Origin: a virus
Length of the DNA stretch: 64,000 nt
Reading direction: 5' to 3' (one strand)
Virus record (IMG/VR): IMGVR_UViG_3300004481_000068
Part shown: one piece after another, positions 11,509-63,049 of the stretch
Layout of the letters: each line of letters begins with the position of its first letter
How positions within the stretch are numbered: the first letter of the stretch is position 1
The notes under the pieces: model-generated
What the model was told of the DNA's origin: nothing
The model's database searches: none
What the model saw: the letters and a program-made list of their open reading frames with translations, nothing else
Translations under genes and position numbers: made by a program

Positions 11509-12123
11509 CTACAACTTAATTCTGTCAGGTGCAATGTCTTGCAATACTGCTGCACTACCGGTTAATTGAATAGCTGCTTGTGCTACTGGAGAATTGGGGT
11601 CTACTAATTGGTCAAAAGATAGCTCACCGTTTTCGTCGAGATATTCTTTTAACTGTTCAGGTTCTTGTCCTTCTTTCCAATAAAAACTATTACTAATGTC
11701 TGACATATACGCACCGTGATCAACAAGGCTGGGCAGATCAGCTACTAAATTTAGTCCTTTAGTATTGATTCTTAAAGCCACATCACTACCACTCAATAAT
11801 TTTTGTTTCGACGTTTTTGCGGGAGATGATGACAAATAAATAGGATTGACACCATAAACATCTTTAGCCCAGGTGCCACCCATAGTCATATAATGAGGGC
11901 TATTTACTTTTAGTCCATTTTTAAGGATTGATGCGGCATTTTTCTTATTTGTCACATGGTAGGCATTAACGTCAATTGTTTTGCTTTTGGATTTTTTTGC
12001 TGTTAAACGCTTTTTAGATTTCGGATGTTTACTAAGATACTTTCTTTGTTCGTCGAGCGAAAGCTCATCCCACTCGCGGGCCGTCTTTATGAAGTCTAAC
12101 TGTATTACTGCAAAGTGATTCAT
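11509..12123 (-). CDS. Leader-motif protein with ADP-ribosyltransferase-like domain
   Basis: MNHFAVIQLDFIKTAREWDELSLDEQRKYLSKHPKSKKRL, then AYHVTNKKNAASILKNGL...IYLS...ALRIN (H-x-T / Y-L-S ART-type strands). Confidence 0.55.
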   Translation of the reverse strand: MNHFAVIQLDFIKTAREWDELSLDEQRKYLSKHPKSKKRLTAKKSKSKTIDVNAYHVTNKKNAASILKNGLKVNSPHYMTMGGTWAKDVYGVNPIYLSSSPAKTSKQKLLSGSDVALRINTKGLNLVADLPSLVDHGAYMSDISNSFYWKEGQEPEQLKEYLDENGELSFDQLVDPNSPVAQAAIQLTGSAAVLQDIAPDRIKL

Positions 12124-17293: not shown

Positions 17294-18421
17294 TTATGTA
17301 ATCTCATCTTTGATTGTTTTAAAAGCCTGACACATGCCGTCTTCTGAATGCTCGAACCATTTATCTTCAGTATGATTTCCCTTTTTGTTGTATATAACTA
17401 TCTTTATAGGGCCAGAGTACATGCCCCATTCTAAATCTATTGTGAGTTTCTTTTTATTTTTTTTACTTTGCACAATTCTTCGGCAGAAACGTTGTTCTTC
17501 AACTTTAAAATGTGGGCACCAATCTTTGTGGGTAATTCCGATTCCGCAATGATCTTCTGGCGAAAGAGCATGATCTTTGACTAGATTGACATAGGTTAAA
17601 AATAATGGGTCAGTGTCTTTGAAGCGTTTCATTTTTTCTTCATACCGTTGATGGGCTTCTTCTTGTTCTTTTCGTAATTTTTTCTCTTCTTCTGAAACGT
17701 CTTCGTTTAGTAGACGAAGTTTTAATCCCTCTCGTACGAATGTTTTGGTAGCTCTCAGTACTGGCGGTTTGCTTGTTATTTCTTCACTGTCTTCATCTTC
17801 TTCAGATTTTGTGTAATAAGTTTTAATGATATTGTTAGGTTCAAAAGTGGGCCATTTGTTATCTTCATCTATACAGTCATCGTCACAGGTAATTTCTTGC
17901 CAACTACTCATTGGGTCTGAAAAATCATAGAATCTGAACTCATAAGGACACGCCCAAATACAGCCGGCAACTGTGAGAATTTTTGTAGTTGGATCGAAGC
18001 GGTGTGCAGACCAGCAGAAGCCTGCTCCGCTTTTAGCTTCAGCGGGAATGAAGTCTAGTCTTGTATTGGTGTCTAATTCAAGTACAGTTTGTCCTTGATA
18101 ATCTGCTCCACAGATGAGGTACTGGTGGCCGTTTGGATGATCGATCCAAGAGTAGGGGAAACTACAATAATTACGTTGTATTTCAAAGATTGGTTTGTCA
18201 GTGCCAACATGATAGACAAGTCCTTGTGTATAATTCCAGCAACCTTTTTTGGTGGAGTATGGAGTAAGTACAAGTCTGTATTTGTTGTTTGGAGATAAAT
18301 AATCCCCAAACACTTTGCCCATATTTTTGTGAGTAAAAAATTTAGAAATGCTTTTATGTTTTTTTAACATTTTAAAAATTTTCATGGTGTTAATTTCTTT
18401 TTTGAAGTAGAATCTCCGCAA
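17294..18421 (-). CDS. Conserved-looking hypothetical phage protein
   Basis: 375-aa ORF with W/C/G-rich motifs (GCWNYTQG, GADYQG, GFCW, GCIWACPYE); no function assignable. Confidence 0.65.
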   Translation of the reverse strand: MRRFYFKKEINTMKIFKMLKKHKSISKFFTHKNMGKVFGDYLSPNNKYRLVLTPYSTKKGCWNYTQGLVYHVGTDKPIFEIQRNYCSFPYSWIDHPNGHQYLICGADYQGQTVLELDTNTRLDFIPAEAKSGAGFCWSAHRFDPTTKILTVAGCIWACPYEFRFYDFSDPMSSWQEITCDDDCIDEDNKWPTFEPNNIIKTYYTKSEEDEDSEEITSKPPVLRATKTFVREGLKLRLLNEDVSEEEKKLRKEQEEAHQRYEEKMKRFKDTDPLFLTYVNLVKDHALSPEDHCGIGITHKDWCPHFKVEEQRFCRRIVQSKKNKKKLTIDLEWGMYSGPIKIVIYNKKGNHTEDKWFEHSEDGMCQAFKTIKDEIT

Positions 18422-48353: not shown

Positions 48354-48740
48354 ATGCGAAAAACAGCTTTTACTGCACATCTATCGTTTAAACGAAATAA
48401 GATATTTGTAGACAATCCTCATCTACAGTCATTGGCTGCGTTGGTCTTATTGATTGGAAAATATAATAAGAAAACTAATGAGCAATGGACTGTTTTTCGT
48501 CAGAAATTTTTAATGTCACAAATTCGTATTTGGTGGAAACCATGGACATGGTCAAAAAAGTCTACATTAACATGCGCTTATTGTGGCAGAGATGATTTAA
48601 AAGTAGTTGACATACATGCAAAAAACTGTGCTACAATAGATCATATTGTACCGACGTCAAAGGGTGGAGCATTAACGGATCCTGAAAATTGTTGTGTTGC
48701 ATGTAGGGCTTGTAATGAAGAAAAATCAGATACAATTTAA
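48354..48740 (+). CDS. HNH endonuclease
   Basis: CAYCG...ATIDHIVPTSKGG...ENCCVACRACNEEK. Confidence 0.9.
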   Translation: MRKTAFTAHLSFKRNKIFVDNPHLQSLAALVLLIGKYNKKTNEQWTVFRQKFLMSQIRIWWKPWTWSKKSTLTCAYCGRDDLKVVDIHAKNCATIDHIVPTSKGGALTDPENCCVACRACNEEKSDTI

Positions 48741-49009
48741 GTATAAGCCTCACTAAATTTGTCGTTAAATAGATCTGTAAGAATTTTTGCTATTTCGTCT
48801 TCTTGTTGTCCATTGATTGTAATTAAAATCTTACAGCCTGTTGCTGCAGTTAATTTCATAAGCGAAAGAATACTTTTTGCATTAACAGTCATAATACCAT
48901 TATCAAATGTCACATCAGCGCTGAACAGTTCAAGACGATTGACGATCAATCGACACGGCCGTGCATGTAAACCTGACTTATTTAACACTGTTAGTGTCAA
49001 TTGTTTCAT
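48737..49009 (-). CDS. ptsH: HPr-family PTS phosphocarrier protein
   Basis: GLHARP (His15 signature) and NAKSILSLM (Ser46 signature); 90 aa. Confidence 0.9.
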   Translation of the reverse strand: MKQLTLTVLNKSGLHARPCRLIVNRLELFSADVTFDNGIMTVNAKSILSLMKLTAATGCKILITINGQQEDEIAKILTDLFNDKFSEAYT

Positions 49010-49310
49010 ATAATTTAGTTAATTCTGGGTCAGGTTGATGGTTTGCACAATCTTTTGTAGCTTTATATCTGCAATCTGCTATTTTACAAGTACGACATAA
49101 TGATTTAAAAAAACTTCTTTTGAACACTCCTGCATACTTGCTTATCCAATGTGAAATATAACTAGTACCTGGGTCATTTTTTATTTTTTCGCCTTCAATC
49201 CATTTTGCAACTTCGATTGCTTTGATTTCAGCTTCTAAGAAAATTATTAATTTCGTATCAGGCGGTTGCGGACATTGTTGCATCATATACTCCCCTGATA
49301 AATGTATAAC

Positions 49311-50018
49311 TTATCCGAGTTGTTTTATGACAGGTATCATATTATTTTTTGCATCTTTTAATTTGTCAAATCTTGCAAGTTCTTTACCTTCAGGTGAAAA
49401 TATTGAATAGTAAGCTGTCAGTCCGCCGTTTGGGCCTGCTGACGTTTGACTTTCAATGTACCAATTTAAATTATGTGCAAAATACCTACATTTGCCGTTA
49501 ACATTAATCGGTCGTTTCCAACATAATTTGTCAGGTATCATTTCAATTTTCATTTTAACAGCTTCTGCCGGCATTTGTTGCAATATAGGAGGAGCCGCTG
49601 GCATTTGCTGCAACATAGGAGTGGCTTTAGGCTGCGTTAATTGCGGAGCGATTGTGTTATTATTTATTAACGTTAGTATTTCATCAACTGTATTACATTT
49701 GTCTAATTCTTGTGTTAAATTAGTGACGTCTTGGTCGTTTATTGGATTATTTCTTAAATTTTTGATATACATGTCATGTTGATGTTCTACTTGTAGAGAC
49801 AAAGTTAAGAACATATTTGCACAATTGATTTCTTGGTCACTATCAGAATTATCTACGACATTTTGTAAAAAGACTTTCCATTCGCGAGGTTTCAATATCG
49901 CGATTGCAGGTGATTGCATTTCAATACTACCTACACGCAGATTCAAACCTCTAATATTGATGATACCTTTACTAGCAGCATCATGTAGTAAATCTTCGGG
50001 TCCGCTATAGAGTGCCAT
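49311..50018 (-). CDS. Hypothetical protein with Q/P/M-rich linker
   Basis: 235 aa; PMLQQMPAAPPILQQMPAE imperfect repeat. Confidence 0.6.
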   Translation of the reverse strand: MALYSGPEDLLHDAASKGIINIRGLNLRVGSIEMQSPAIAILKPREWKVFLQNVVDNSDSDQEINCANMFLTLSLQVEHQHDMYIKNLRNNPINDQDVTNLTQELDKCNTVDEILTLINNNTIAPQLTQPKATPMLQQMPAAPPILQQMPAEAVKMKIEMIPDKLCWKRPINVNGKCRYFAHNLNWYIESQTSAGPNGGLTAYYSIFSPEGKELARFDKLKDAKNNMIPVIKQLG

Positions 50019-50209
50019 TTTTGACCACCGATCTTAAATCATTAACCTTTTATTATATGAAAATATAAAGTGTTATTTAAATAGTCATCGATACAGTCGT
50101 AGAAAACGTGTAAAAAGTAACATTCTTTGTAAAGCTAATTGATTAAACTTGTGAATCTTTGCGAATCAGGTTGACTATAATCTATAATTACATACAAAGG
50201 AGTAATAGG

Positions 50210-51772
50210 ATGAAAAACGCTACGCATTTCAATTCTATGACTTACGAACCTACAAATAATTTGCTATGCGGAATTCGTCATCATTTTCCATTGGAAGTTT
50301 GTCCTTGGGATGATTATTTCCCTCGTATGGCTCAGACAGATTTTTTCCTCGGTCGGCACAAGAAAAAAGCATCAAAAACATACTTTATTCGTAAGGCTCC
50401 ATTTAACGGATCATTTGCTATATTAGGTGGATTAACGGCAGCTTTACGGACGTTGGCAGACTTTACATTTGATGATGTAGTATGCGCGGTTTTAAAAGAT
50501 CAAGGTTATAAAAACGAATTTTTAAATTTTTTACATAATGAATTAAAGACAATAAAAGTTAATGTTTATTCTCCACCAGAAGGTTCAGTTTTTTTGCCCA
50601 ATGAGCCAGTAATTGTTTGGGAAGGCGATCTCATAAGTGTGAGATTGGCAGAAGGTATCTTTTCGAAGCACATAAATTATCCGTCATTATCTATGACAAA
50701 ATGGAATCGAGTAAAAAGCGCGGCGTCGCCGGGCAAAACGCTAGAATTTGCCAGACGTAGAGCTCAGGATGATGAACGGACTACATTATATGGTAATATG
50801 GGTGGTGCTGATATTACTAGTAATTCCAACATTCGAATAAGCTTCGATATTACGACTTCAGGTACTATGGGTCATGAATGGGTACAAAGTTTCGGCGATG
50901 AATTTGAAGCTTTTGATAAATGGTTGGAAATTAATCCTGATAAGCCCGTTTTACTCATAGACACTATTGACACACTGCAATCAGGTCTTCCAAATGCGAT
51001 TAAAGCTTTTAAAAAGCATCTGACGAAAATTAAAGCAGTTGGTGCAAATATGGGCATCCGCAATGATTCTGGCGATCTTGCATATTTGACTATTGAAGAA
51101 CGGCGAATTTTGGATGCTGTTGGATTACAAGACGTCTGGATTTTTGAAACAAACGACCTTGATGAATATAGCATTCAGGCAATAAAAGAACAAATTTTTA
51201 CACATGCAGCAAGAGCAGGTCTCGATGCTGCCATAATTTTATCAAGAGTAGTTTGGGCATGCGGAACTAATCCCGGCACTTGTTCTGATCAACCGAGTAT
51301 CGGTGGTGTTGCAAAATTAACTTCTATTGAAAATGATCGTGGTGAAGAAAAAGCTGTAATAAAAATTGCGCATGATAATCCCGTTAAGACAAGTATTCCT
51401 GGAAACAATCGGTCAGTTTTTGTATGGGACGGTGAGGAATTTCTTTGTTGCCTCGTTTATCATAAGGATGAAATTGCTAATACATGTGCAATTGCTTATC
51501 ATCCTGATGACGAATCAAAATCGATTATTCTTCAGCATCATGATAATTTAGGTTTCAGTTTCAGACAACGATTAGTATATCAATGGAATAAACCGTTTGA
51601 AAGTGATGTTACGCTTCAGGATGTGCGAAAATTGGTAACTGAAGAAACTGAATTGTTGCATTGGACATGCAAACGACTTGAAAATCCACATCTTATGAAA
51701 GTGAGTCTTAGTGAAAGAGTATTTCAATTGAGACAGCATTTAATATCTGAACGTAAACTTATTGAACAGTGA
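50210..51772 (+). CDS. pncB: Nicotinate phosphoribosyltransferase
   Basis: RKAPFNG, PEGSVFLPNEP, EFARRRAQ, SGTMGHEWVQSF, LLIDT.DTLQSG, IRNDSGDL, GGVAKL, KTSIPG; start moved to ATG 50210 (SD AAGGAG). Confidence 0.9.
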   Translation: MKNATHFNSMTYEPTNNLLCGIRHHFPLEVCPWDDYFPRMAQTDFFLGRHKKKASKTYFIRKAPFNGSFAILGGLTAALRTLADFTFDDVVCAVLKDQGYKNEFLNFLHNELKTIKVNVYSPPEGSVFLPNEPVIVWEGDLISVRLAEGIFSKHINYPSLSMTKWNRVKSAASPGKTLEFARRRAQDDERTTLYGNMGGADITSNSNIRISFDITTSGTMGHEWVQSFGDEFEAFDKWLEINPDKPVLLIDTIDTLQSGLPNAIKAFKKHLTKIKAVGANMGIRNDSGDLAYLTIEERRILDAVGLQDVWIFETNDLDEYSIQAIKEQIFTHAARAGLDAAIILSRVVWACGTNPGTCSDQPSIGGVAKLTSIENDRGEEKAVIKIAHDNPVKTSIPGNNRSVFVWDGEEFLCCLVYHKDEIANTCAIAYHPDDESKSIILQHHDNLGFSFRQRLVYQWNKPFESDVTLQDVRKLVTEETELLHWTCKRLENPHLMKVSLSERVFQLRQHLISERKLIEQ

Positions 51773-51782
51773 GGAGATCGAT

Positions 51783-52592
51783 ATGAATTGTAAAGCTGTA
51801 AAAAATACTATAATTGATTGGTTGAGAGCTCAACTTGAAAAAAGCGGTCAACATGGATTTGTTTTAGGCGTCTCAGGCGGCGTTGATTCTGCATTAGTTT
51901 CTACTTTATGCGCAGCTACTGGAAAATCAACTTTGTTATTGACCTTGCCCATATATCAGGCAGAAGATCAGATGAAACGCGGAGCTGACCATATAAAAAT
52001 GCTTATGAATGCAAGGCCTAGTACTGTAACGACAGAGGAAGTTAATCTTAATGATGTGTTTGATACATTTAAGAAAAGTTTATCTTCTGCTGTTGCAAAT
52101 GATGCTCTTGTCATGGCTAATCTGCGTGCGCGTTTAAGAATGACAACTATTTATGCATATGCGGGTCGCAATGGATATTTAGTTGCAGGTACAGGAAACA
52201 AAATTGAAGATTTTGGTGTTGGCTTTTTTACAAAATGGGGAGATGGGGCGGTTGATCTTTCTCCCATTGGTGATTTATCAAAATCTCAAGTTTGGGAATT
52301 AGCTCATTTTGTCGGAGTTAGTGATGATATCGTCAAAGCCGTTCCAACAGATGGCTTATGGTCAGACAACAGAGGCGATGAGAATCAGATTGGAGCAACT
52401 TATCCTGAACTCGAATGGGCAATGGGCATTTTTGAGTCTCACAAAGATATTATGCCTGAAGAGCTAATAACGCGCACCTATCTTACTTCACATGAAAGAG
52501 AAGTACTTAGAATATATATAACTCGACATAATCAAAATATGCACAAGTTCAATCCTATTCCTATATGTATTGTGCCGTCGGTTCTTTTATGA
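51783..52592 (+). CDS. nadE: NH3-dependent NAD+ synthetase (single domain)
   Basis: VLGVSGGVDSA, ANLRARLRM, GTGNKIE, GFFTKWGDGAVD..PIGDLSK.QV, PTDGLW...DE.QIGATY; SD GAGGAG. Confidence 0.95.
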   Translation: MNCKAVKNTIIDWLRAQLEKSGQHGFVLGVSGGVDSALVSTLCAATGKSTLLLTLPIYQAEDQMKRGADHIKMLMNARPSTVTTEEVNLNDVFDTFKKSLSSAVANDALVMANLRARLRMTTIYAYAGRNGYLVAGTGNKIEDFGVGFFTKWGDGAVDLSPIGDLSKSQVWELAHFVGVSDDIVKAVPTDGLWSDNRGDENQIGATYPELEWAMGIFESHKDIMPEELITRTYLTSHEREVLRIYITRHNQNMHKFNPIPICIVPSVLL

Positions 52593-53257
52593 TGAACATT
52601 ATTAAAGTTAACAATTCTTGTGAAATACATACTATTGATGACCTTAAAGTGTATTATGAACAGATTAAGCCTCAAATTAAAGAGCGCTTAGCTGATTTTG
52701 ATAAGATAAGTAGAGAAGGCAGCAAATTTGATCTTTTTCGTGAATTGGTTTTTTGTATTTTAACTGCTAATGCTAGTGCTAAAATGGGATTAAAATCGAT
52801 AAATGCTCTTGACAGCATTATTTTTGACGGAACTGCTAAAGACATTGAACGTCGATTGCGAGGTATTTATCGGTATCCGACATCAAGAGCTAATTATATT
52901 ATTCGCACTCGTGATTTTTTGCAATCGCACTGTGATCTAGACTTACAAATAATATTCAGACAATATGAGGATCAATTTCAACTTCGTGAATTTCTTGCTA
53001 AAAACATTGTCGGCATTGCTTTTAAAGAATGCAGTCATTTTCTTAGAAATGTCGGATATAAAGGATTTGCAATTCTTGATAAGCATGTCATCTCAATGTT
53101 CAATTTGATCGGATGTGCGGTTAGGAAGCCGAAGAATAAACGAGAGTATAGAGAACTTGAACTTAAGATGATTGCTTTTGCAAAACGAAATCAGTTAGAT
53201 ATCGATGATCTTGATTTGGTTTTTTGGTCATATAGGACGGGAGAAATAATCAAATGA
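52589..53257 (+). CDS. ogg: 8-oxoguanine DNA glycosylase/AP lyase (HhH)
   Basis: ELVFCILTANASA, KNIVGIAFKECSHFLRNVG (catalytic Lys), AILDKHV (catalytic Asp). Confidence 0.85.
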   Translation: MMNIIKVNNSCEIHTIDDLKVYYEQIKPQIKERLADFDKISREGSKFDLFRELVFCILTANASAKMGLKSINALDSIIFDGTAKDIERRLRGIYRYPTSRANYIIRTRDFLQSHCDLDLQIIFRQYEDQFQLREFLAKNIVGIAFKECSHFLRNVGYKGFAILDKHVISMFNLIGCAVRKPKNKREYRELELKMIAFAKRNQLDIDDLDLVFWSYRTGEIIK

Positions 53258-54030
53258 GTTGGATTATAAATAAAGCTATCGTTGCAGGGACTGATCATAC
53301 ATTTGTGAAGCTTAATTGTCAAGATTTTTGTCGCGTTGAGGCAAATGAATTGCAAACAAAAATTTGTGGTGTGGTTTGCGATGGTTGTTCAAGTGGAACA
53401 ATGTCTGAAGTAGGAGCAATGTTAATGGGACAATATCTTTTAAATTTTCTTATGCATCTTGATTTTGCATACTTTGATGACGAAAGTTTACAAAATATAG
53501 TTCAATCGAGGATTGTAAGATTTGTCAATGACATTATGGATAGTGTGATGTATGACAGTCACATTAAAGAAAAAGTGTCATTTTTAGAACATAATATGAT
53601 GGCAACATTCATTTTTTGTGTGATTGACAAGGACAAAATATTTATCGGTCGATGCGGTGACGGTGTCATAATACTTAATGATATTGTAAAAGTTATTGAT
53701 GAAAATGACAGGCCGTCATATATAGCTTATAATTGCATACCGCAAAATTATAAGCAAAATCCTTTTGTTACAGCTGAGCCGGTGCCGTCAATACAAGTGC
53801 AGGTTGATCAAATATTTGCTACTAAAATTGTTATTGCTACAGATGGTTTACGTGCAGCAATAGTAAATAATTTGACGCCTGAATTATATGGAGCAACTAA
53901 AAGACAATTACAACGAAAATTTAATGTGTGGCAAATGCAAGATAAAATATTTTCTGACGATACGTCATGTATTGTATTTGAAAAAGTAATTGAACAATCT
54001 AAGGTAACTAATAATGAACCAGCAAATTAA
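53254..54030 (+). CDS. PP2C-family protein phosphatase (YegK-like)
   Basis: G.DH...NCQD, VCDGCSSG..SEVGA, GDGV, IATDGL, SDDTS. Confidence 0.85.
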   Translation: MSWIINKAIVAGTDHTFVKLNCQDFCRVEANELQTKICGVVCDGCSSGTMSEVGAMLMGQYLLNFLMHLDFAYFDDESLQNIVQSRIVRFVNDIMDSVMYDSHIKEKVSFLEHNMMATFIFCVIDKDKIFIGRCGDGVIILNDIVKVIDENDRPSYIAYNCIPQNYKQNPFVTAEPVPSIQVQVDQIFATKIVIATDGLRAAIVNNLTPELYGATKRQLQRKFNVWQMQDKIFSDDTSCIVFEKVIEQSKVTNNEPAN

Positions 54031-55891
54031 CAAAGTAATTTATCAAGGTGCAACTATTGCTATTGATAGTAAGAAGACTATTGGTAGTGGCGGTGAAGCT
54101 ATTATTGTTAAGTATAATAAATTAGCATTTAAAATATATCACGATCCAACAATTCAACGTGCAAAGAAGTTAGCTGATTTTATTAAGAGCAATTTTCAAT
54201 TACCATCAAATGTTATGGCTCCTATAGATCTTTTATATGACGCACATAACCGTGTAGTTGGTTTTGCAATGAATATTGCCAGTGGTTGTAAGGATGTTAA
54301 AAATTTATTGGACGTTAATTTTCGTAGTCAGCAGCAAATTAACACTAGCGATGTCATACAATGTTTTGCTCAGTCAAAATCAATTTTAGATACATTGCAT
54401 AACATTGGTCTAATAGTTGGCGACTTTAATGACCTTAATGAATTATTTGACGCATCATTAGTGCCGTATTTTATCGATGTTGATTCGTTTCAATTTGGAA
54501 AATATCCTTGTGTTGTCGGAACTGAAGAATACATTGACCCAATGCTATATGGTATTGATTTGACAAAAAAGCCGACATTTACAAAGGAGACAGATTGGTA
54601 TTCATTCAATGTAATGTTATTTCGAGCATTGTTATTCGTGCATCCATACGCAGGCGTACATAGACAGTATAAATCATTATTTACTCGTGCCTCTAATGCT
54701 ATTTGGATATTTGATTCTAATGTTATTCGTCCAAAAGTAGCTATTCATCCTGAGACGTTGGATGATGATTTATTACATCATTTTTCAAACATTTTTTGCA
54801 AAAAACAAAGACTTGATTTATCTGTTCAAAAATTACAAGACATTAGTAGCACATTCATTAAATGCAATAAGTGCGGTGTATATTTTTCAAACACTAGACA
54901 AAAATGCCCACAATGTCAGAAAGTTATACCGCAGCCTGTAATTGATTTAAGTAATATCATCAACAAAAAACAAATTGGCAAAGAAACATGCAGTATATGC
55001 AATCTGTTTGAGACAACAGGTGCAATACTTTTTCTTAAAATAATAGACAATGAAAAATTAATTATCGTTTATTATGAAGACAATGTTACTCATTGTAAGT
55101 ATATTTCTAGCACATTTGTCTGTGAATGTAAAATTTGGGATGGGTTGTCTAAGACAGCTAAATTTGATTTTTTTGAGCCGTATTGTTTAGTAATTCATGT
55201 AGATAATCATTTAATGCTTTTTAATATTAGCACTAACGCGCTTGTACCGATAACAAGCACTTTTACTACAGAATATTCAGGTGAAGCAGTATTTTCAAGC
55301 AGTAGAAATCATTTGTATCGGTTAACGTCAAACGCAGTTCTTAGTGGTGAACTTTCTAATGGCCACTTTATAGAGCATGAAGTTGTGTCAGCTTTAGAAG
55401 ATCAAACGTGGATAGCAGTTAGTCAAAATGATTTAGGGTTTGGATTCTATCGAACTTTTAATAAGTATCTTTTCTTTGTGTTTTCAAAAAAAGGACGGTA
55501 TGAATTAACTGCATTACCGGAATTAAAAGGACAGCTTATTGATTTTGATGTTAAGATGTCTGTAAACACAATTTTATTACTAAGAAAAAATCTTAATAAT
55601 GGTCGAACATATTCGCATTGGCATATTATAAATGATGAAGGAACAATATTGGAAACAAAATCTGAAGAATCTATAAGTTCAGATTTATTAAAAAATATTT
55701 ATGGAAAAGCATTTGCTGGGTCTATCATTATTCATCCTACAGATGCAGGCGTCGCAATTGAAAAGCACGGAGATGTATCATTGAAAGTGTCAACGGCAGA
55801 ATTTGTTACATCTTCAAATCAATTATATCTTTACAAACAAGGACTTTTGGTCAGGTCAATGAATAAAGTTTCTTATATTATTCTCAAATAA
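54014..55891 (+). CDS. Ser/Thr protein kinase (YegI-like) with Zn ribbon and C-terminal beta domain
   Basis: IGSGGEA, AFKIY, IVGDFNDLN, FIDVDSFQ, GTEEYIDP, TDWYSF, HPYAG; CNKC...CPQC. Confidence 0.85.
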   Translation: MNQQINKVIYQGATIAIDSKKTIGSGGEAIIVKYNKLAFKIYHDPTIQRAKKLADFIKSNFQLPSNVMAPIDLLYDAHNRVVGFAMNIASGCKDVKNLLDVNFRSQQQINTSDVIQCFAQSKSILDTLHNIGLIVGDFNDLNELFDASLVPYFIDVDSFQFGKYPCVVGTEEYIDPMLYGIDLTKKPTFTKETDWYSFNVMLFRALLFVHPYAGVHRQYKSLFTRASNAIWIFDSNVIRPKVAIHPETLDDDLLHHFSNIFCKKQRLDLSVQKLQDISSTFIKCNKCGVYFSNTRQKCPQCQKVIPQPVIDLSNIINKKQIGKETCSICNLFETTGAILFLKIIDNEKLIIVYYEDNVTHCKYISSTFVCECKIWDGLSKTAKFDFFEPYCLVIHVDNHLMLFNISTNALVPITSTFTTEYSGEAVFSSSRNHLYRLTSNAVLSGELSNGHFIEHEVVSALEDQTWIAVSQNDLGFGFYRTFNKYLFFVFSKKGRYELTALPELKGQLIDFDVKMSVNTILLLRKNLNNGRTYSHWHIINDEGTILETKSEESISSDLLKNIYGKAFAGSIIIHPTDAGVAIEKHGDVSLKVSTAEFVTSSNQLYLYKQGLLVRSMNKVSYIILK

Positions 55892-55910
55892 CCTTTTCAT
55901 AGGAGGGTTC

Positions 55911-56882
55911 ATGCATAATCCGTCGTTTTACGATCCAAACAGGGTCGGCACACTTTTTCTTCCCGATCTTAACAAGGTCGAGAGTGAAGCCGACAAGTTA
56001 AGCATCAGTGCGTCGTCGAAAGACACCGCCGGCAAAAAGGTTGCGCTGATGATCATCGATATGCAAATCGATTTTTGCCACAAAACAGGCACACTCTATG
56101 TGCCGGGTGCAGAGGATGATGTCAAACGGTTGATTACCTTTATCCTTAAGTGGATGGAGAATATCACATCCGTATTTGCATCACTCGACTCGCATCTGCT
56201 GTTCCAGATCTTCTATCGCACGTGGTGGCAGCTCACTAACGGCAAGAAGCCGGATATTTTCACAGAAATCTACAAGATGATGCCGTCGGCAGCTGCAAAA
56301 CATGCTTTAGCAAAGTGTGTTGATGACGGTGACATTCGGCCGGTGATCGAGCCCATATTCAGCATTGACTATACGAGCTTACTGATGCAACAGGCTAACA
56401 AGCCGCTTTGCATCTGGCCGTATCATACAATGCTTGGTACTCCCGGCCAGGCACTCGATCCGGCGCTGTATGAGATACTGGCATTTCACTCTTTTGCAAG
56501 AAAGACGCAGTTGAATTTTTTGCAGAAAGGCCAGATACCTCAGACTGAAATGTATGGTGTTCTCAGCCCTGAGGTAAAAATTCCGCAGCACAAACAGGGC
56601 GGCTTCAATACAGATTTTCTCAATCTGTTGATGAAGCACGATAAAGTATATTTTGCCGGTCAGGCAAAGAGCCATTGCGTTCTTGCTTCATTGGCTCAGA
56701 TCGTTGAATTCTTCAAGAATGACAAGGTTACATTAAGCAAGATATACATTCTTGAGGATTGCATGAGTTCGGTAAAACATCCGGCGATTGATTTCGAGGC
56801 CATTGCAACAGCGGCATTCGATAAATTTCGCAATTCCGGAGTCAACATCGTCAAAAGTACAGAAGTCGATCTTTTGGCTTAA
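55911..56882 (+). CDS. Cysteine hydrolase, nicotinamidase/isochorismatase family
   Basis: IIDMQIDFC..GTLYVPGA, SLDSH, IWPYH.MLG..G, AGQAKSHCV, ILEDCMS. Confidence 0.85.
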   Translation: MHNPSFYDPNRVGTLFLPDLNKVESEADKLSISASSKDTAGKKVALMIIDMQIDFCHKTGTLYVPGAEDDVKRLITFILKWMENITSVFASLDSHLLFQIFYRTWWQLTNGKKPDIFTEIYKMMPSAAAKHALAKCVDDGDIRPVIEPIFSIDYTSLLMQQANKPLCIWPYHTMLGTPGQALDPALYEILAFHSFARKTQLNFLQKGQIPQTEMYGVLSPEVKIPQHKQGGFNTDFLNLLMKHDKVYFAGQAKSHCVLASLAQIVEFFKNDKVTLSKIYILEDCMSSVKHPAIDFEAIATAAFDKFRNSGVNIVKSTEVDLLA

Positions 56883-56901
56883 ACAATAGAAAGGAACTAT
56901 C

Positions 56902-57696
56902 ATGCAGCAATCAAAGAGCACTGCCAGCATCGCTGCGGTTACTAATCTTTTTACGCAGGCAGTGAGCAAGAATGAAATCGGTGCAGATGCTGCCGATATC
57001 ATGGTTAGCGGCCTCAATGACACTAACATTCTAGGGTGCACAGGTGTTGATGCTAACGACCTTGACACTGACATCGTCACTATAGCATGTCTGGTCATTG
57101 ACGGCTCGTATTCAATGAAAGACAATGAACAGGTGGTACGTGAAGCATACGATGAACTCATCATTAAAGCGATGAAGGAATCGAAACAAGCGAAAGACAT
57201 GCTTGTCAGTGCTCGTATCTTCGATGAAACGGAAAAGGTGCTTTACGGCTTTAAGAAGGTTGCCGATATCGGTAAAATCGGTAGCCAATATATGGCTGAA
57301 GGCAGTGCAACAATGTTATACGAAGCTGCAGTGAATGCGATGACGGCAACAAGAGCATATGCTAAGACGTTGAATGACAGCGGCGTCTTGACAAAATGTG
57401 TAGTTGCTATCCTGTCAGACGGTCGCAATAACTGTGGCAAATTCATGTCGCCCGATCCGGTCAAGAAGGTCGCTCAGGATTGCATCAAGTCGGAAATGTT
57501 TTATTTGGTTTATGTCGGTTTTAAAGCCGATCCGGCAGACAATCTGGATGCAATAGGCAAGTCAATGGGTTTTCCGAATGTGTTAACGACTACTAATAAT
57601 CCTCATGATGTACGAGCAGCAATGGGGCTAGTCAGTCAGTCAACAATACGGAAAAGTCAAACGACTGTTGGAGCACCTAATTCATTTTTTCAGTGA
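56902..57696 (+). CDS. vWA-domain protein (TerY/YegL-like)
   Basis: LVIDGSYSM (DxSxS MIDAS), T.LY.A, ILSDG.NN. Confidence 0.8.
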   Translation: MQQSKSTASIAAVTNLFTQAVSKNEIGADAADIMVSGLNDTNILGCTGVDANDLDTDIVTIACLVIDGSYSMKDNEQVVREAYDELIIKAMKESKQAKDMLVSARIFDETEKVLYGFKKVADIGKIGSQYMAEGSATMLYEAAVNAMTATRAYAKTLNDSGVLTKCVVAILSDGRNNCGKFMSPDPVKKVAQDCIKSEMFYLVYVGFKADPADNLDAIGKSMGFPNVLTTTNNPHDVRAAMGLVSQSTIRKSQTTVGAPNSFFQ

Positions 57697-57708
57697 TTGA
57701 TTGTTAAG

Positions 57709-57746
57709 ATAATACTGGCAATTTAAATTTGCCAGTATTATTTTTG
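57709..57746 (+). terminator. Rho-independent terminator
   Basis: ATAATACTGGCAA / TTGCCAGTATTAT 13-bp stem followed by TTTT. Confidence 0.8.
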
Positions 57747-58081: not shown

Positions 58082-58579
58082 ATGGTTACAAAACAAGTTG
58101 GTGACATTATTAATCTTATTGACATTCTTAAACTGGACGGTTTAATGAATGCTGCGAATGGTAAAGGTCCAATGGGATTTGGAATTGCAGGTGCAATCAA
58201 GCATGCAGGAGGAACTGAAATACAATCTGATGCTTTTGAAGTTTGCTTTAAACTAGACCCGCAGCCGGGACAAGCATATTCTACTATCTCTGGAACATTG
58301 AAAGATAAAGGAATTAAACGAATTATTCATGCCGTGACGATGAAATCTCCTGCAGGTTATACATCATTAGACATCATTGAAGCTGCTTTTAAATCTGCAT
58401 TAATTCTGGCAAAACAAGAAGGGATTACGAAATTGGGATGTACAGCTTTAGGTACAGGCGTCGGTAGATTAAGTCCTATTGATGTTGGAATCATCATGTC
58501 ACGAGTTGCCAAAAGTGGCATTGTGGATATTGATGTAGCATTTGTTGATCGTGATCAACGATTTATCGATGCTTTATGA
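58082..58579 (+). CDS. Macro domain (ADP-ribose binding/hydrolase) protein
   Basis: GDI, NAANG..PMGFGIAGAI..AGG, IIHAV, ALGTGVG. Confidence 0.9.
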   Translation: MVTKQVGDIINLIDILKLDGLMNAANGKGPMGFGIAGAIKHAGGTEIQSDAFEVCFKLDPQPGQAYSTISGTLKDKGIKRIIHAVTMKSPAGYTSLDIIEAAFKSALILAKQEGITKLGCTALGTGVGRLSPIDVGIIMSRVAKSGIVDIDVAFVDRDQRFIDAL

Positions 58580-61046: not shown

Positions 61047-62321
61047 ATGAACAGTGCTAGAGATATTTTAGGATTTAGTGTTGCTCCAAATATGCATCGT
61101 ATAATGATGGCTAACGGTTTTTATGCTGCAATTATGCGAGCTGATAAAAAGAGTGACAAGGGCAATCAAGGTTTGCCGCCAGGCATACCTATTCCAGTTT
61201 TACCTGTAGATTACCTTAAAAATCGACCTGATTTTTGGGTAGGCGGGCAAGGATCATATGTTTGCCCTGTTGATTCAGATTGGGCTTTATGGTTCAATTG
61301 GTCGATGAACAATACTAACATCGCGATTTTGACGTCTGTTAAAGGTATGAATCCTCTAACAGGTCAGCGCGTAAATGGTCTTGGATTGGAACAATACATG
61401 GGAAAATGTCCAATTCATGATGTCACATTACAACACGGTAAACTTTGTCCTGAATGTAATTTTAAATGGCCTGATCAAAACTACATAACTGATCCAAATC
61501 CATTTTATCTTGACGGATTTAGGTCAGCTGATGGTGTAGTACGGCAATTTTATTTTACTGAGGATATGGCAAAGTCAATTCCTGAGTTAGTTATTGGTAA
61601 AGATGATACTGTGCCTGCATTTGGATTTTGTTTTTATGGTTTGAAAGTTAATGATGTAAAGTATGAGAATGGTAATAGATTTAAAGATAAATTTCCCGTT
61701 GAATCTTTAACTGAAAGTCGCGGCACTCTTAGTATACTTCGAGGTTTTTCAGGTTATTCAGGCACAGGTTCTATAGGTTTCCCTGGAGTGTATTATTCTT
61801 CTAGTTTAAGTAAATCAGCAGACATGTCTGCTGCTGACATTAGATATAGTTCATCAGGAGAAACAAAATGCTTTCTTTCAACTTCTAAGTCTAAGTCAGC
61901 AGAGTCCAAGACATCAGGAGGTCCGATTCTTCCTGCTGCATGCTTTAATTTAGCTGATGATAGTATTGGTTCTACTTTAAATGAAAGATCATTTAGTGAT
62001 GAGTCAATAGCTATGTCAGACAGTAAACTTGTAGCAGACGAGCCTGTGGCAGCATCTTTTAGTCCAGAACTCTTACGCAAGAGTGTTAGAAAAATACATG
62101 CATCTGCTGAAGTTGGTATTGGCGCAGGTGCAAAGATTAAGCAGGCATTTGCTAAAGATGCAAGATGCATAGATGAATGGCAAGAAAAACCTGCAGGCAT
62201 TATTCGTGTTTATTTTGTTTTTCGCGAGCAGTTTGAACGATATGTAGAAGATGGATTGAAAGATTTATCTGGTTGTAAAGAATGTTTTATGGAAGGCTTA
62301 CCTGTAGGAGGTGCAAGATGA
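61047..62321 (+). CDS. Hypothetical protein
   Basis: 424 aa; NPLTG, QNY...P...LDGF....G.VRQF, and C-terminal GIGAGAKIKQ...D...W...RVYFV; central Ser-rich spacer. Confidence 0.65.
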   Translation: MNSARDILGFSVAPNMHRIMMANGFYAAIMRADKKSDKGNQGLPPGIPIPVLPVDYLKNRPDFWVGGQGSYVCPVDSDWALWFNWSMNNTNIAILTSVKGMNPLTGQRVNGLGLEQYMGKCPIHDVTLQHGKLCPECNFKWPDQNYITDPNPFYLDGFRSADGVVRQFYFTEDMAKSIPELVIGKDDTVPAFGFCFYGLKVNDVKYENGNRFKDKFPVESLTESRGTLSILRGFSGYSGTGSIGFPGVYYSSSLSKSADMSAADIRYSSSGETKCFLSTSKSKSAESKTSGGPILPAACFNLADDSIGSTLNERSFSDESIAMSDSKLVADEPVAASFSPELLRKSVRKIHASAEVGIGAGAKIKQAFAKDARCIDEWQEKPAGIIRVYFVFREQFERYVEDGLKDLSGCKECFMEGLPVGGAR

Positions 62322-63049
62322 GTAAACAAAAGATGAATTTAATAGATCTACTTTTTATTGTTGATGTTACAGGTTCGATGGGTGGATTCATTGATGAAGC
62401 TAGAAAACGAATGCGATCAATTCTTGAATCATTAACAGCAAAATTTGGGATTGATTTGAAAGTCGGATTAAGTCTCTATCGAGATCATCCATCGCAGGAT
62501 TCATCATTTGTTACAGTGACATTTTCTTTAATGGATGTGAAGGACATTCAAGAGAAAATTTCACTTATACAAGTTGGTGGTGGTGGTGATTTTCCTGAAG
62601 CTGTGCTAGATGGTGTGATTGATGGAGTAAATGACATGCAATGGCGAGATAATAGTCGTCGAATAGCTTTTTTGATCGGAGATGCACCGGCACATGGCAT
62701 GTATGAAAATGATTCATGCTGTCTTTGTGGCAAGACATGGGGTGATGCAATTGCTACATCTCAAGATAAAAAAATCGTTATCTATTCTATAGTTTTAAGT
62801 GATAGTATAGACGCAATAGCCAACTTTAAAATGCTTTCAAATTTTACTGGAGGCTTGTTGATACAAGGTAAAGATGCAATGAATGCTATCATTACTACAC
62901 TTAAATCTACATTTGACGATATTAATCTTGATTCAAAGGTCTTGGAGATGTTATCAAAAGATTGTGACAACGACGATATTTGTAAAATGTTAAAAATTGA
63001 TCGTGAAAAATTGTCAATGTCAAAATCAAGAATTGTGCAATATTCATAA
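62318..63049 (+). CDS. vWA-domain protein (alpha-kinase-associated type)
   Basis: FIVDVTGSM, YRDH, GGGDFPEAV.DG, LIGDAPAHG; start 62318 after SD AGGAGG. Confidence 0.85.
   Translation: MSKQKMNLIDLLFIVDVTGSMGGFIDEARKRMRSILESLTAKFGIDLKVGLSLYRDHPSQDSSFVTVTFSLMDVKDIQEKISLIQVGGGGDFPEAVLDGVIDGVNDMQWRDNSRRIAFLIGDAPAHGMYENDSCCLCGKTWGDAIATSQDKKIVIYSIVLSDSIDAIANFKMLSNFTGGLLIQGKDAMNAIITTLKSTFDDINLDSKVLEMLSKDCDNDDICKMLKIDREKLSMSKSRIVQYS

Follow-up and report, generated by a model that had tools for sequence, protein, structure and literature searches.

A giant-phage operon predicted to carry nicotinamide to NAD+ by way of nicotinate, with a nicotinamidase-like enzyme embedded in a kinase/phosphatase/vWA cassette

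A candidate deamidating NAD+ salvage operon

We analyzed a 64-kb stretch of DNA (hereafter, the window) belonging to a 73-kb contig from an uncultured giant phage (IMG/VR record IMGVR_UViG_3300004481_000068). A compact operon in this window appears to supply three of the four enzymes of a deamidating route from nicotinamide to NAD+: a nicotinamidase-like hydrolase, a nicotinate phosphoribosyltransferase (NAPRTase), and the NAD synthetase NadE. On balance, we favor the view that this operon, together with an adenylyltransferase encoded elsewhere, constitutes such a route, and that its nicotinamidase is built into a conserved signaling cassette. NAD+ depletion is among the commonest outcomes of bacterial anti-phage immunity, and the three NAD+-rebuilding phage pathways demonstrated by experiment all do without deamidating chemistry. 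If our reading is true, giant phages recycle nicotinamide through nicotinate, independently of nicotinamide phosphoribosyltransferase (Nampt), and the first salvage step is apparently under protein-phosphorylation control, for which we found no counterpart in NAD+ salvage in the literature searched; since the cassette is found in bacterial chromosomes too, its logic would also matter for NAD+ homeostasis in bacteria. Should no more than the plain pathway hold, the window offers one more gene set of the already catalogued "NAD-jumbo phage" type.

In the route that we propose, the nicotinamidase-like enzyme would convert nicotinamide to nicotinate and NH3, and a class II NAPRTase would join nicotinate to phosphoribosyl pyrophosphate (PRPP), yielding nicotinate mononucleotide (NaMN). 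An adenylyltransferase (a phage NadD encoded elsewhere, or the NadD of the host) would then form nicotinate adenine dinucleotide (NaAD), which the NH3-type NadE would amidate to NAD+. Overall, free nicotinamide would be used to maintain or replenish NAD+ in the infected cell. We regard this chemistry as likely, with the substrates and the flux predicted from the genes. The cassette, for its part, probably places the entry step under a phosphorylation switch, in which the kinase beta-propeller and the vWA MIDAS site could act as sensing or docking surfaces.

Judged by its gene content and relatives, the window is a piece of a giant phage genome. It encodes a Baseplate_J domain, a protein weakly matching a PHROG baseplate-wedge family, an HNH gene, and many small unknown open reading frames (ORFs); related contigs carry rIIA-like and rIIB genes (L001; such handles denote individual contigs, loci, and proteins) or genes for ribonucleotide reductase, dUTPase, and an Acb2/Tad1-hairpin protein (L003). 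The relatives in IMG/VR span 182-545 kb, three of them being 98-100% complete according to CheckV, and the 73-kb contig is therefore a fragment. Searching IMG/VR for the NAPRTase with single-sequence patterns returned no close relative, and searching with profile patterns returned four; the INPHARED phage collection contained no DNA match to the cluster. In the nearest contig, L001, the gene order from HNH to vWA is kept at 41-72% protein identity, a recurrence by which we judge that the arrangement is not due to chance.

The operon comprises seven genes on the + strand (positions 50210-57696; Table 1), in which neighbors either overlap by 4-28 nt or lie 19 nt apart. On its 5' side is a 190-nt divergent intergenic region, and an AAAGGAG ribosome-binding site precedes the ATG at 50210; no regulator gene is visible within the operon. 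We treat 50210-57696 as one operon because of this tight packing, the promoter-like site before it, and the hairpin after it; the promoter-like site is weak evidence alone, since such sites are not enriched over shuffled sequence. A first-pass annotation of the window had drawn the span as 50210-56882, correctly recognizing an operon but ending it one gene short of the vWA gene. Its listing of a pncB-type NAPRTase, nadE, and a nicotinamidase-family hydrolase holds: all three are found on the + strand, with intact catalytic residues.

Table 1. Features of the operon and its surroundings (positions are those of the window)
Feature	Position	Strand	Basis or remark
Promoter-like site (TTGCGA, 18 nt, TATAAT)	50159..50188	+	Consensus scan, 10/12 matches
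Class II nicotinate phosphoribosyltransferase (PncB2/NAPRT1-like), 520 aa (gene 1)	50210..51772	+	Pfam, NCBIfam, PDB alignments
Single-domain NH3-type NAD synthetase NadE, 276 aa (gene 2)	51762..52592, probable ATG 51783	+	PF02540, TIGR00552
Ogg2/AGOG-type N-glycosylase/DNA lyase-like protein (gene 3)	52565..53257	+	PF22175 162 bits; NF002305 183.6 vs cut-off 183
PP2C-family protein phosphatase (gene 4)	53254..54030	+	PF13672 (PP2C_2) 53.6 bits vs cut-off 24
Ser/Thr kinase with Cys4 Zn ribbon and C-terminal beta-propeller, 625 aa (gene 5)	54014..55891	+	Alignment, model, Foldseek
Nicotinamidase-like cysteine hydrolase, 323 aa (gene 6)	55911..56882	+	Profile, fold, motifs
vWA-domain protein with intact MIDAS motif (gene 7)	56902..57696	+	Weak Pfam VWA match; MIDAS residues
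Terminator-like hairpin, 16-bp stem then T run	57706..57744	+	Ten bases past last stop codon
Macro-domain protein, next transcription unit	58082..58579	+	PF01661 62.4 bits

The nicotinamidase-like hydrolase and its genomic settings

By sequence, the hydrolase is marginal (Pfam Isochorismatase, 28.5 bits vs 27). Its residues D50/K206/C256 and D93/H95/H172 are invariant in a 45-member family alignment and align with D8/K122/C167 and D51/H53/H94 of yeast Pnc1, which we take to be the catalytic triad and the zinc ligands, respectively, of that enzyme. Both marks used to recognize a nicotinamidase, the Asp-Lys-Cys triad and the Asp-x-His...His metal site, are present; the metal site is what sets nicotinamidases apart from other hydrolases of the isochorismatase type. 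A profile search of the PDB gave five matches, consisting of four nicotinamidases (including the top three) and an uncharacterized cysteine hydrolase (3IRV), and when the AlphaFold2 model (pLDDT 95.7) was used for fold searches, the top 11 PDB and top 5 Swiss-Prot matches were all nicotinamidases (TM by target 0.75-0.81). Known nicotinamidases lack its additional ~40 N-terminal residues and the ~70-aa insertion between its DxH and WPxH motifs. Taken together, the sequence and the predicted fold suggest that the hydrolase most likely belongs to a distinct subfamily that works like a nicotinamidase.

Its gene is, as far as conserved gene order can tell, the fourth member of a cassette consisting of PP2C, beta-propeller kinase, nicotinamidase, and vWA/MIDAS genes. 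The order PP2C, kinase, hydrolase, vWA is found in 6/6 phage loci, and all four of the four larger phage relatives with the cassette also carry NAPRTase and NadE; NadE in turn directly follows NAPRTase in every phage contig found to contain the NAPRTase clade (the window, L001, L003, and G006-G009). The original proposal that the hydrolase shares an operon with NAPRTase and NadE is borne out, but its tightest linkage is to the PP2C-kinase-vWA cassette and not to those two genes.

The hydrolase is also found in bacteria. The hydrolase loci examined are the best 80 of at least 389 matches, and fractions among them are rough; the bacterial ones, mostly from Chloroflexota and also from Polyangiaceae, include 75 with enough downstream sequence. 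A vWA gene lies directly downstream of the hydrolase in 27 of these 75, and where vWA-linked loci have enough upstream sequence (n = 25), a kinase is present in 15/25 and PP2C in 12/25. Among vWA-less bacterial loci of the same 310-aa hydrolase subfamily, 14 of 48 have a NAPRTase-family gene within 10 kb, and at one of the loci (L036), a bona fide NAPRTase (592.7 bits vs a cut-off of 469) lies directly downstream of the hydrolase. This PncA-PncB pairing provides independent genome-context support for nicotinamidase activity. On the evidence of these loci, the subfamily has two bacterial settings, a plain PncA-PncB pairing and the four-gene signaling cassette, and the phages combine both. In a maximum-likelihood tree, the phage hydrolases form one well-supported group apart from their bacterial counterparts. 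Also inside the phage clade fall the nicotinamidase-like and vWA genes of L009, a 9-kb contig assigned to a Spirochaetales metagenome-assembled genome, at 54% and 57% identity to those of the window; this contig probably represents phage DNA that was sorted into a bacterial genome bin.

In the kinase of the cassette, G26-G27-E28, K40, D137, N142, and D155/D157 are invariant and the Cys4 ribbon residues (C284, C287, C298, C301) nearly so (alignment A5). Its AlphaFold2 model (pLDDT 87) is all-beta over residues 326-624, and Foldseek matches include the LRRK2 kinase-WD40, the IRAK4 kinase, and the clathrin propeller. The MIDAS residues of the vWA protein (D67, S69, S71, T137, and D173) are invariant as well (alignment A4). 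A triad named TerY-P, comprising a TerY-like vWA protein, PP2C, and a Ser/Thr kinase with a Zn ribbon, was reportedly defined by Anantharaman, Iyer and Aravind in 2012, and an anti-phage TerY-P is said to have been described by Gao et al. in 2020. Like the triad, the set in the window brings the three domain types together in a single operon, with a Zn ribbon following the kinase domain and the MIDAS motif intact, but it differs in the nicotinamidase placed between kinase and vWA, in the beta-propeller of the kinase, and in being carried by a phage. At E <= 0.01, neither the vWA nor the PP2C protein matched any PADLOC model, and the kinase matched only PD-T4-6, at a non-significant E = 0.0076. 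As judged from sequence, the resemblance is one of architecture, and the proteins fall outside the families of anti-phage TerY-P. Our literature search found no paper describing a PP2C-kinase-nicotinamidase-vWA cassette. The window holds a second, unrelated vWA gene (62282-63049, + strand; VWA_4, E = 4e-10), ~5 kb downstream of the operon.

NAPRTase and NadE

The phosphoribosyltransferase (PRTase) appears to be of the nicotinate type and not of the Nampt type, in agreement with the first-pass annotation. Its two Pfam domains pass their gathering scores (NAPRTase_N, 40.4 bits with a cut-off of 32.6; NAPRTase_C, 34.2 bits with a cut-off of 23.3), and 11/11 NCBIfam matches are to NAPRTase models. 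Two solved NAPRTases align with it from end to end: the Enterococcus (E.) faecalis enzyme (2F7F; 184 bits with a single sequence and 297.5 bits with a profile of 42 clade relatives) and the human enzyme (4YUB). Human NAPRT residues Y21, R171, H213, R318, and K396, which along with S214 are catalytic or substrate residues (PMC12143786), correspond to Y36, R183, H222, R284, and K369 in the window when counted along the printed alignment, and these five positions are invariant across the 42 clade members.

NadE scores 165.6 bits against PF02540 and 172.6 bits against TIGR00552 (cut-off 63.65), has the SGGVDS PP-loop, and lacks a glutaminase domain. At the NadE position we observe a non-orthologous swap, with the short NH3-type enzyme in the window, L003, G001, G007, and G008, and its place taken by a long glutamine-type NadE in L001, G003-G006, and G009; the window NadE aligns with the long NadE of L001 (11539-13422) at 30% identity, over 166 residues only.

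The missing adenylyltransferase

No NadD or NadM had been noted in the window on first inspection, and three tests agree: a HIGH-motif regular expression matched in none of the six frames of the window, no CTP_transf_like family was listed in a Pfam survey of 68 further window ORFs, and a tblastn search of the window with the NadD-like proteins of five relatives gave a best E = 1.1. The possibility that the gene is encoded elsewhere, which had been raised alongside supply by the host, gains from the relatives. A NadD-type gene is present in 5/6 of those with a completeness of 67% or more (330-545 kb), namely G001, G004, G005, G007, and G009, with TIGR00482 scores among the five of 145, 117.5, 112.0, 91.3, and 83.5 bits (cut-off 112.45); in G009 (545 kb, 100% complete), nadD immediately precedes pncB-nadE. 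Three small relative fragments contain no NadD-type gene. Since five of six such relatives have NadD, a location elsewhere in the phage genome is the best-supported answer, and by analogy with them the missing adenylyltransferase is most likely a NadD-type enzyme encoded there. NadD is essential in most bacteria, and the NadD of the host is therefore a possible fallback.

Other candidates were considered and rejected. The CTP_transf_like gene of L001 (4033-5154, - strand) is a CoaD-CoaE fusion acting in coenzyme A synthesis, as are the corresponding genes of L094, L098, and L107. Such fusions of phosphopantetheine adenylyltransferase and dephospho-CoA kinase cover the last two steps of coenzyme A synthesis, and in L001 the gene lies beside rIIB. 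A 235-aa ORF at 49311-50018 (- strand) matches NadD at chance level in tblastn (E = 1.6), and it lacks a HIGH motif, carries Pro/Gln-rich repeats, and shows no Rossmann-like look-alike. This ORF runs divergently from the NAPRTase gene, has a counterpart at the equivalent site of L001 (39% identity), and is without a family match. The NadD-type proteins L095, L096, and L097, from three giant-phage relatives, possess an additional N-terminal region of ~105-125 residues without assignment.

Relation to known NAD+ pathways

Phage NAD+ reconstitution was described for NARP1 (the ADPR-PP synthetase Adps and Namat) and NARP2 (Nampt and Nmnat) in a paper that does not mention nicotinate, NadE, or nicotinamidase (bioRxiv 10.1101/2024.02.11.579819), and NARP3, consisting of PnuC and NadR, was published in August 2026 (PMC13464706). 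The gene set of the window appears to match neither NARP1 nor NARP2, as had been stated from the outset: with respect to NARP2, the PRTase is of NAPRTase type and the window has no adenylyltransferase, and enzymes of NARP1 and NARP3 are not seen among 25/27 Pfam families listed for the 68 other window ORFs, a survey of ORFs of at least 100 aa, by general Pfam models, in a fragment of the genome. NARP1-3 and the proposed route are alike in rebuilding NAD+ in the infected cell, and NARP2 (found in phages such as KVP40) also starts from nicotinamide and PRPP. In contrast, NARP2 is an amidated route with two steps (nicotinamide to nicotinamide mononucleotide [NMN] to NAD+), whereas the window route would take four, via nicotinate, NaMN, and NaAD, and needs NadE; and NARP1-3 are experimentally shown counter-defenses, while the route proposed here is known from genes alone.

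The suggestion that the window represents a third chemistry is now outdated, both by NARP3 (PMC13464706) and by the Preiss-Handler clusters and pncA genes of jumbo phages reported in 2024 (PMC11662467). In a 2022 survey of viral NAD+ metabolism, the phage NAD+ synthesis genes listed were NadV, NadM, and NadR only (PMC9503650). The 2024 metagenomic study (Microbiome) describes 174 "NAD-jumbo phages" in which a salvage or Preiss-Handler pathway is complete, and predicts bioinformatically both jumbo-phage pncB-nadD-nadE clusters, for example in Kuafu_71, and phage pncA (PMC11662467); a deamidating route in phages has therefore already been annotated. We found no assay or defense-system test of such a route in the literature.

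The NAD-jumbo phages resemble our case in being large phages with clustered pncB and nadE, with nadD in relatives (adjacent to the pair in G009), and in that the pathways are predicted in both. The window cluster differs in having no nadD and in having four genes interleaved (Ogg2-like, PP2C, kinase, and vWA); and, in a comparison that goes by description, the available part of that study (PMC11662467) does not describe a divergent 323-aa nicotinamidase within a signaling cassette. Bacterial salvage I (PncA-PncB-NadD-NadE) would comprise the same four reactions, with the same catalytic residues in PncA, PncB, and NadE, but here the set is phage-borne, the PncA is ~110-140 aa longer, and a kinase/phosphatase/vWA set accompanies the entry enzyme. 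What appears to be new, and what we did not find in print, is a Preiss-Handler-type phage gene set with a predicted nicotinamidase front end inside a kinase/phosphatase/vWA cassette.

Purpose of the route and alternative explanations

A number of observations weigh against the route as we propose it. Two of its enzymes are divergent by family models: the NAPRTase stays under the NCBIfam equivalog cut-offs (TIGR01513, 287.1 vs 297.4 bits; NF006695, 345.2 vs 469), for which reason we consider it a divergent member of its family, and the hydrolase falls far under the PncA equivalog cut-off (NF008623, 20.3 vs 174 bits) and has 323 aa, compared with ~180-215 aa in known nicotinamidases. No adenylyltransferase is seen in the 64 kb, the contig is only a 73-kb fragment, and the route may be incomplete in this phage; among the relatives, G003 (89% complete) lacks NadD and encodes a CoaD-CoaE fusion only. 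The vWA-linked and NAPRTase-linked bacterial contexts do not overlap (0/29), so that the cassette may serve a separate function. The four-step route costs three ATP plus PRPP and is less direct than NARP2. With regard to defense in particular, the operon contains no defense-related gene, and nothing in the data ties it to a defense system.

A specific role against NAD-depleting defenses is thus a tentative proposal, to which we give somewhat less than an even chance. A bolder version, which we hold to be a long shot, would make the PP2C/beta-propeller kinase/vWA triad a sensor that switches the nicotinamidase on when a NADase defense (such as Thoeris, DSR, or SIR2-HerA) floods the cell with nicotinamide; with NadD elsewhere, the operon would then form a signal-gated fourth NAD+ reconstitution pathway, different in chemistry from NARP1-3, that rescues phages from NAD-depletion immunity.

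The enzymes might instead work as proposed in the service of general metabolic support, providing NAD+ for replication and for phage NAD-consuming enzymes in hosts with weak salvage. This reading is the one given for NAD-jumbo phages, which, according to that study (PMC11662467), have many NAD-consuming enzymes and pathways that complement the host; it also accords with the lack of a defense-related gene in the operon, for which PADLOC returned two non-significant matches only. We nevertheless find it rather doubtful as the sole purpose. The experimentally tested NARP1, NARP2, and NARP3 all act as counter-defense, and a nicotinamidase front end is most sensible in cells rich in free nicotinamide, such as those in which NADases have acted. 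In addition, L003 (149 kb) has an Acb2/Tad1-hairpin cyclic-nucleotide sponge gene (17886-18104) ~6 kb downstream of its NAPRTase-NadE pair. The two purposes are not exclusive.

A second alternative concerns the hydrolase, which might not be a salvage enzyme at all but an output or sensor of the PP2C-kinase-vWA cassette, acting on another amide or ester substrate or sensing nicotinamide by binding it; salvage would then be left to NAPRTase and NadE as a pair, with nicotinate coming from the host or the medium. Several of the patterns above fit such a division: the tightest and most widespread partners of the hydrolase are vWA, kinase, and PP2C (6/6 phage and 27/75 bacterial loci), no NAPRTase or NadE gene lies within 10 kb at any of the 29 vWA-linked loci of bacteria, the phage relative L003 has NAPRTase-NadE with no cassette nearby, and the ~70-aa insertion and N-terminal extension are foreign to known nicotinamidases. 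We consider it unlikely, given that the triad and metal site that mark nicotinamidases are invariant in the 45 family members, that the best fold matches are all nicotinamidases, that the same subfamily occurs near NAPRTase genes in 14 bacterial loci, and that every larger cassette-bearing phage relative also has NAPRTase and NadE.

The identity of the final steps could also differ from our proposal. In the Francisella tularensis route (NadE* and NadM), a short NadE amidates NaMN to NMN, from which an NMN adenylyltransferase makes NAD+, and the first-pass annotation had suggested that the window NadE may do the same. The window NadE is likewise of the short NH3 type, the F. tularensis enzyme (3FIU) is its best solved relative at 120.2 bits, and the window has no NadD. 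However, the margin of 3FIU over the next closest solved structure, the P. horikoshii NAD synthetase (2E18, 118.1 bits), is negligible; the top NCBIfam model of the window NadE is the archaeal-type PRK13980, and a characterized archaeal-type enzyme works specifically on NaAD and shows hardly any NMN synthetase activity (PMC3376133). A preference for NaMN is without support here. The Francisella-type variant would still require a HIGH-motif adenylyltransferase, those of the relatives are of NadD type and not NadM or NadR, and several relatives carry the long glutamine-type NadE at the same position. We therefore do not favor direct amidation of NaMN, and judge it very unlikely in comparison with amidation of NaAD.

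Highly improbable, finally, is a PRTase that uses nicotinamide (a NARP2-like entry that would make the nicotinamidase irrelevant), to which a weak PHROG match to a family labeled nicotinamide PRTase (32.4 bits) and the replacement of the human substrate-recognition residue S214 by a Glu (E223) invariant in the clade could point, but against which stand the NCBIfam, Pfam, and PDB matches, all to NAPRTases, with no Nampt chain among solved structures matching at E <= 0.001 by single sequence or profile, and the direct coupling of the gene to NadE, which is needed solely for a deamidated product.

Neighboring genes

The Ogg2-like gene lies inside or beside the NAD/kinase cluster in several giant phages, and its position is kept in L001 (13424-14098), L005 (5713-6381)/L093, and L090 (2154-2822). 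No homologue of the Acb2/Tad1-hairpin protein of L003 was found in the window, and a sequence search of solved structures gave no support for an ADP-ribosyltransferase-like protein at 11509-12123. Downstream of the operon, the nearest solved relatives of the macro-domain protein are TTHA0132 and a YmdB-type O-acetyl-ADP-ribose deacetylase. The phage accordingly also encodes a domain type that binds or hydrolyzes ADP-ribose, the other product of NADases; the protein may act on ADP-ribose or on ADP-ribosylated targets, and its proximity to the operon suggests that it might belong to the NAD system. Upstream, at 48354-49286, are genes for an HNH endonuclease and an HPr-like protein (PTS-HPr) and a small ORF, all of them syntenic with L001; an HPr homologue is unusual in a phage.

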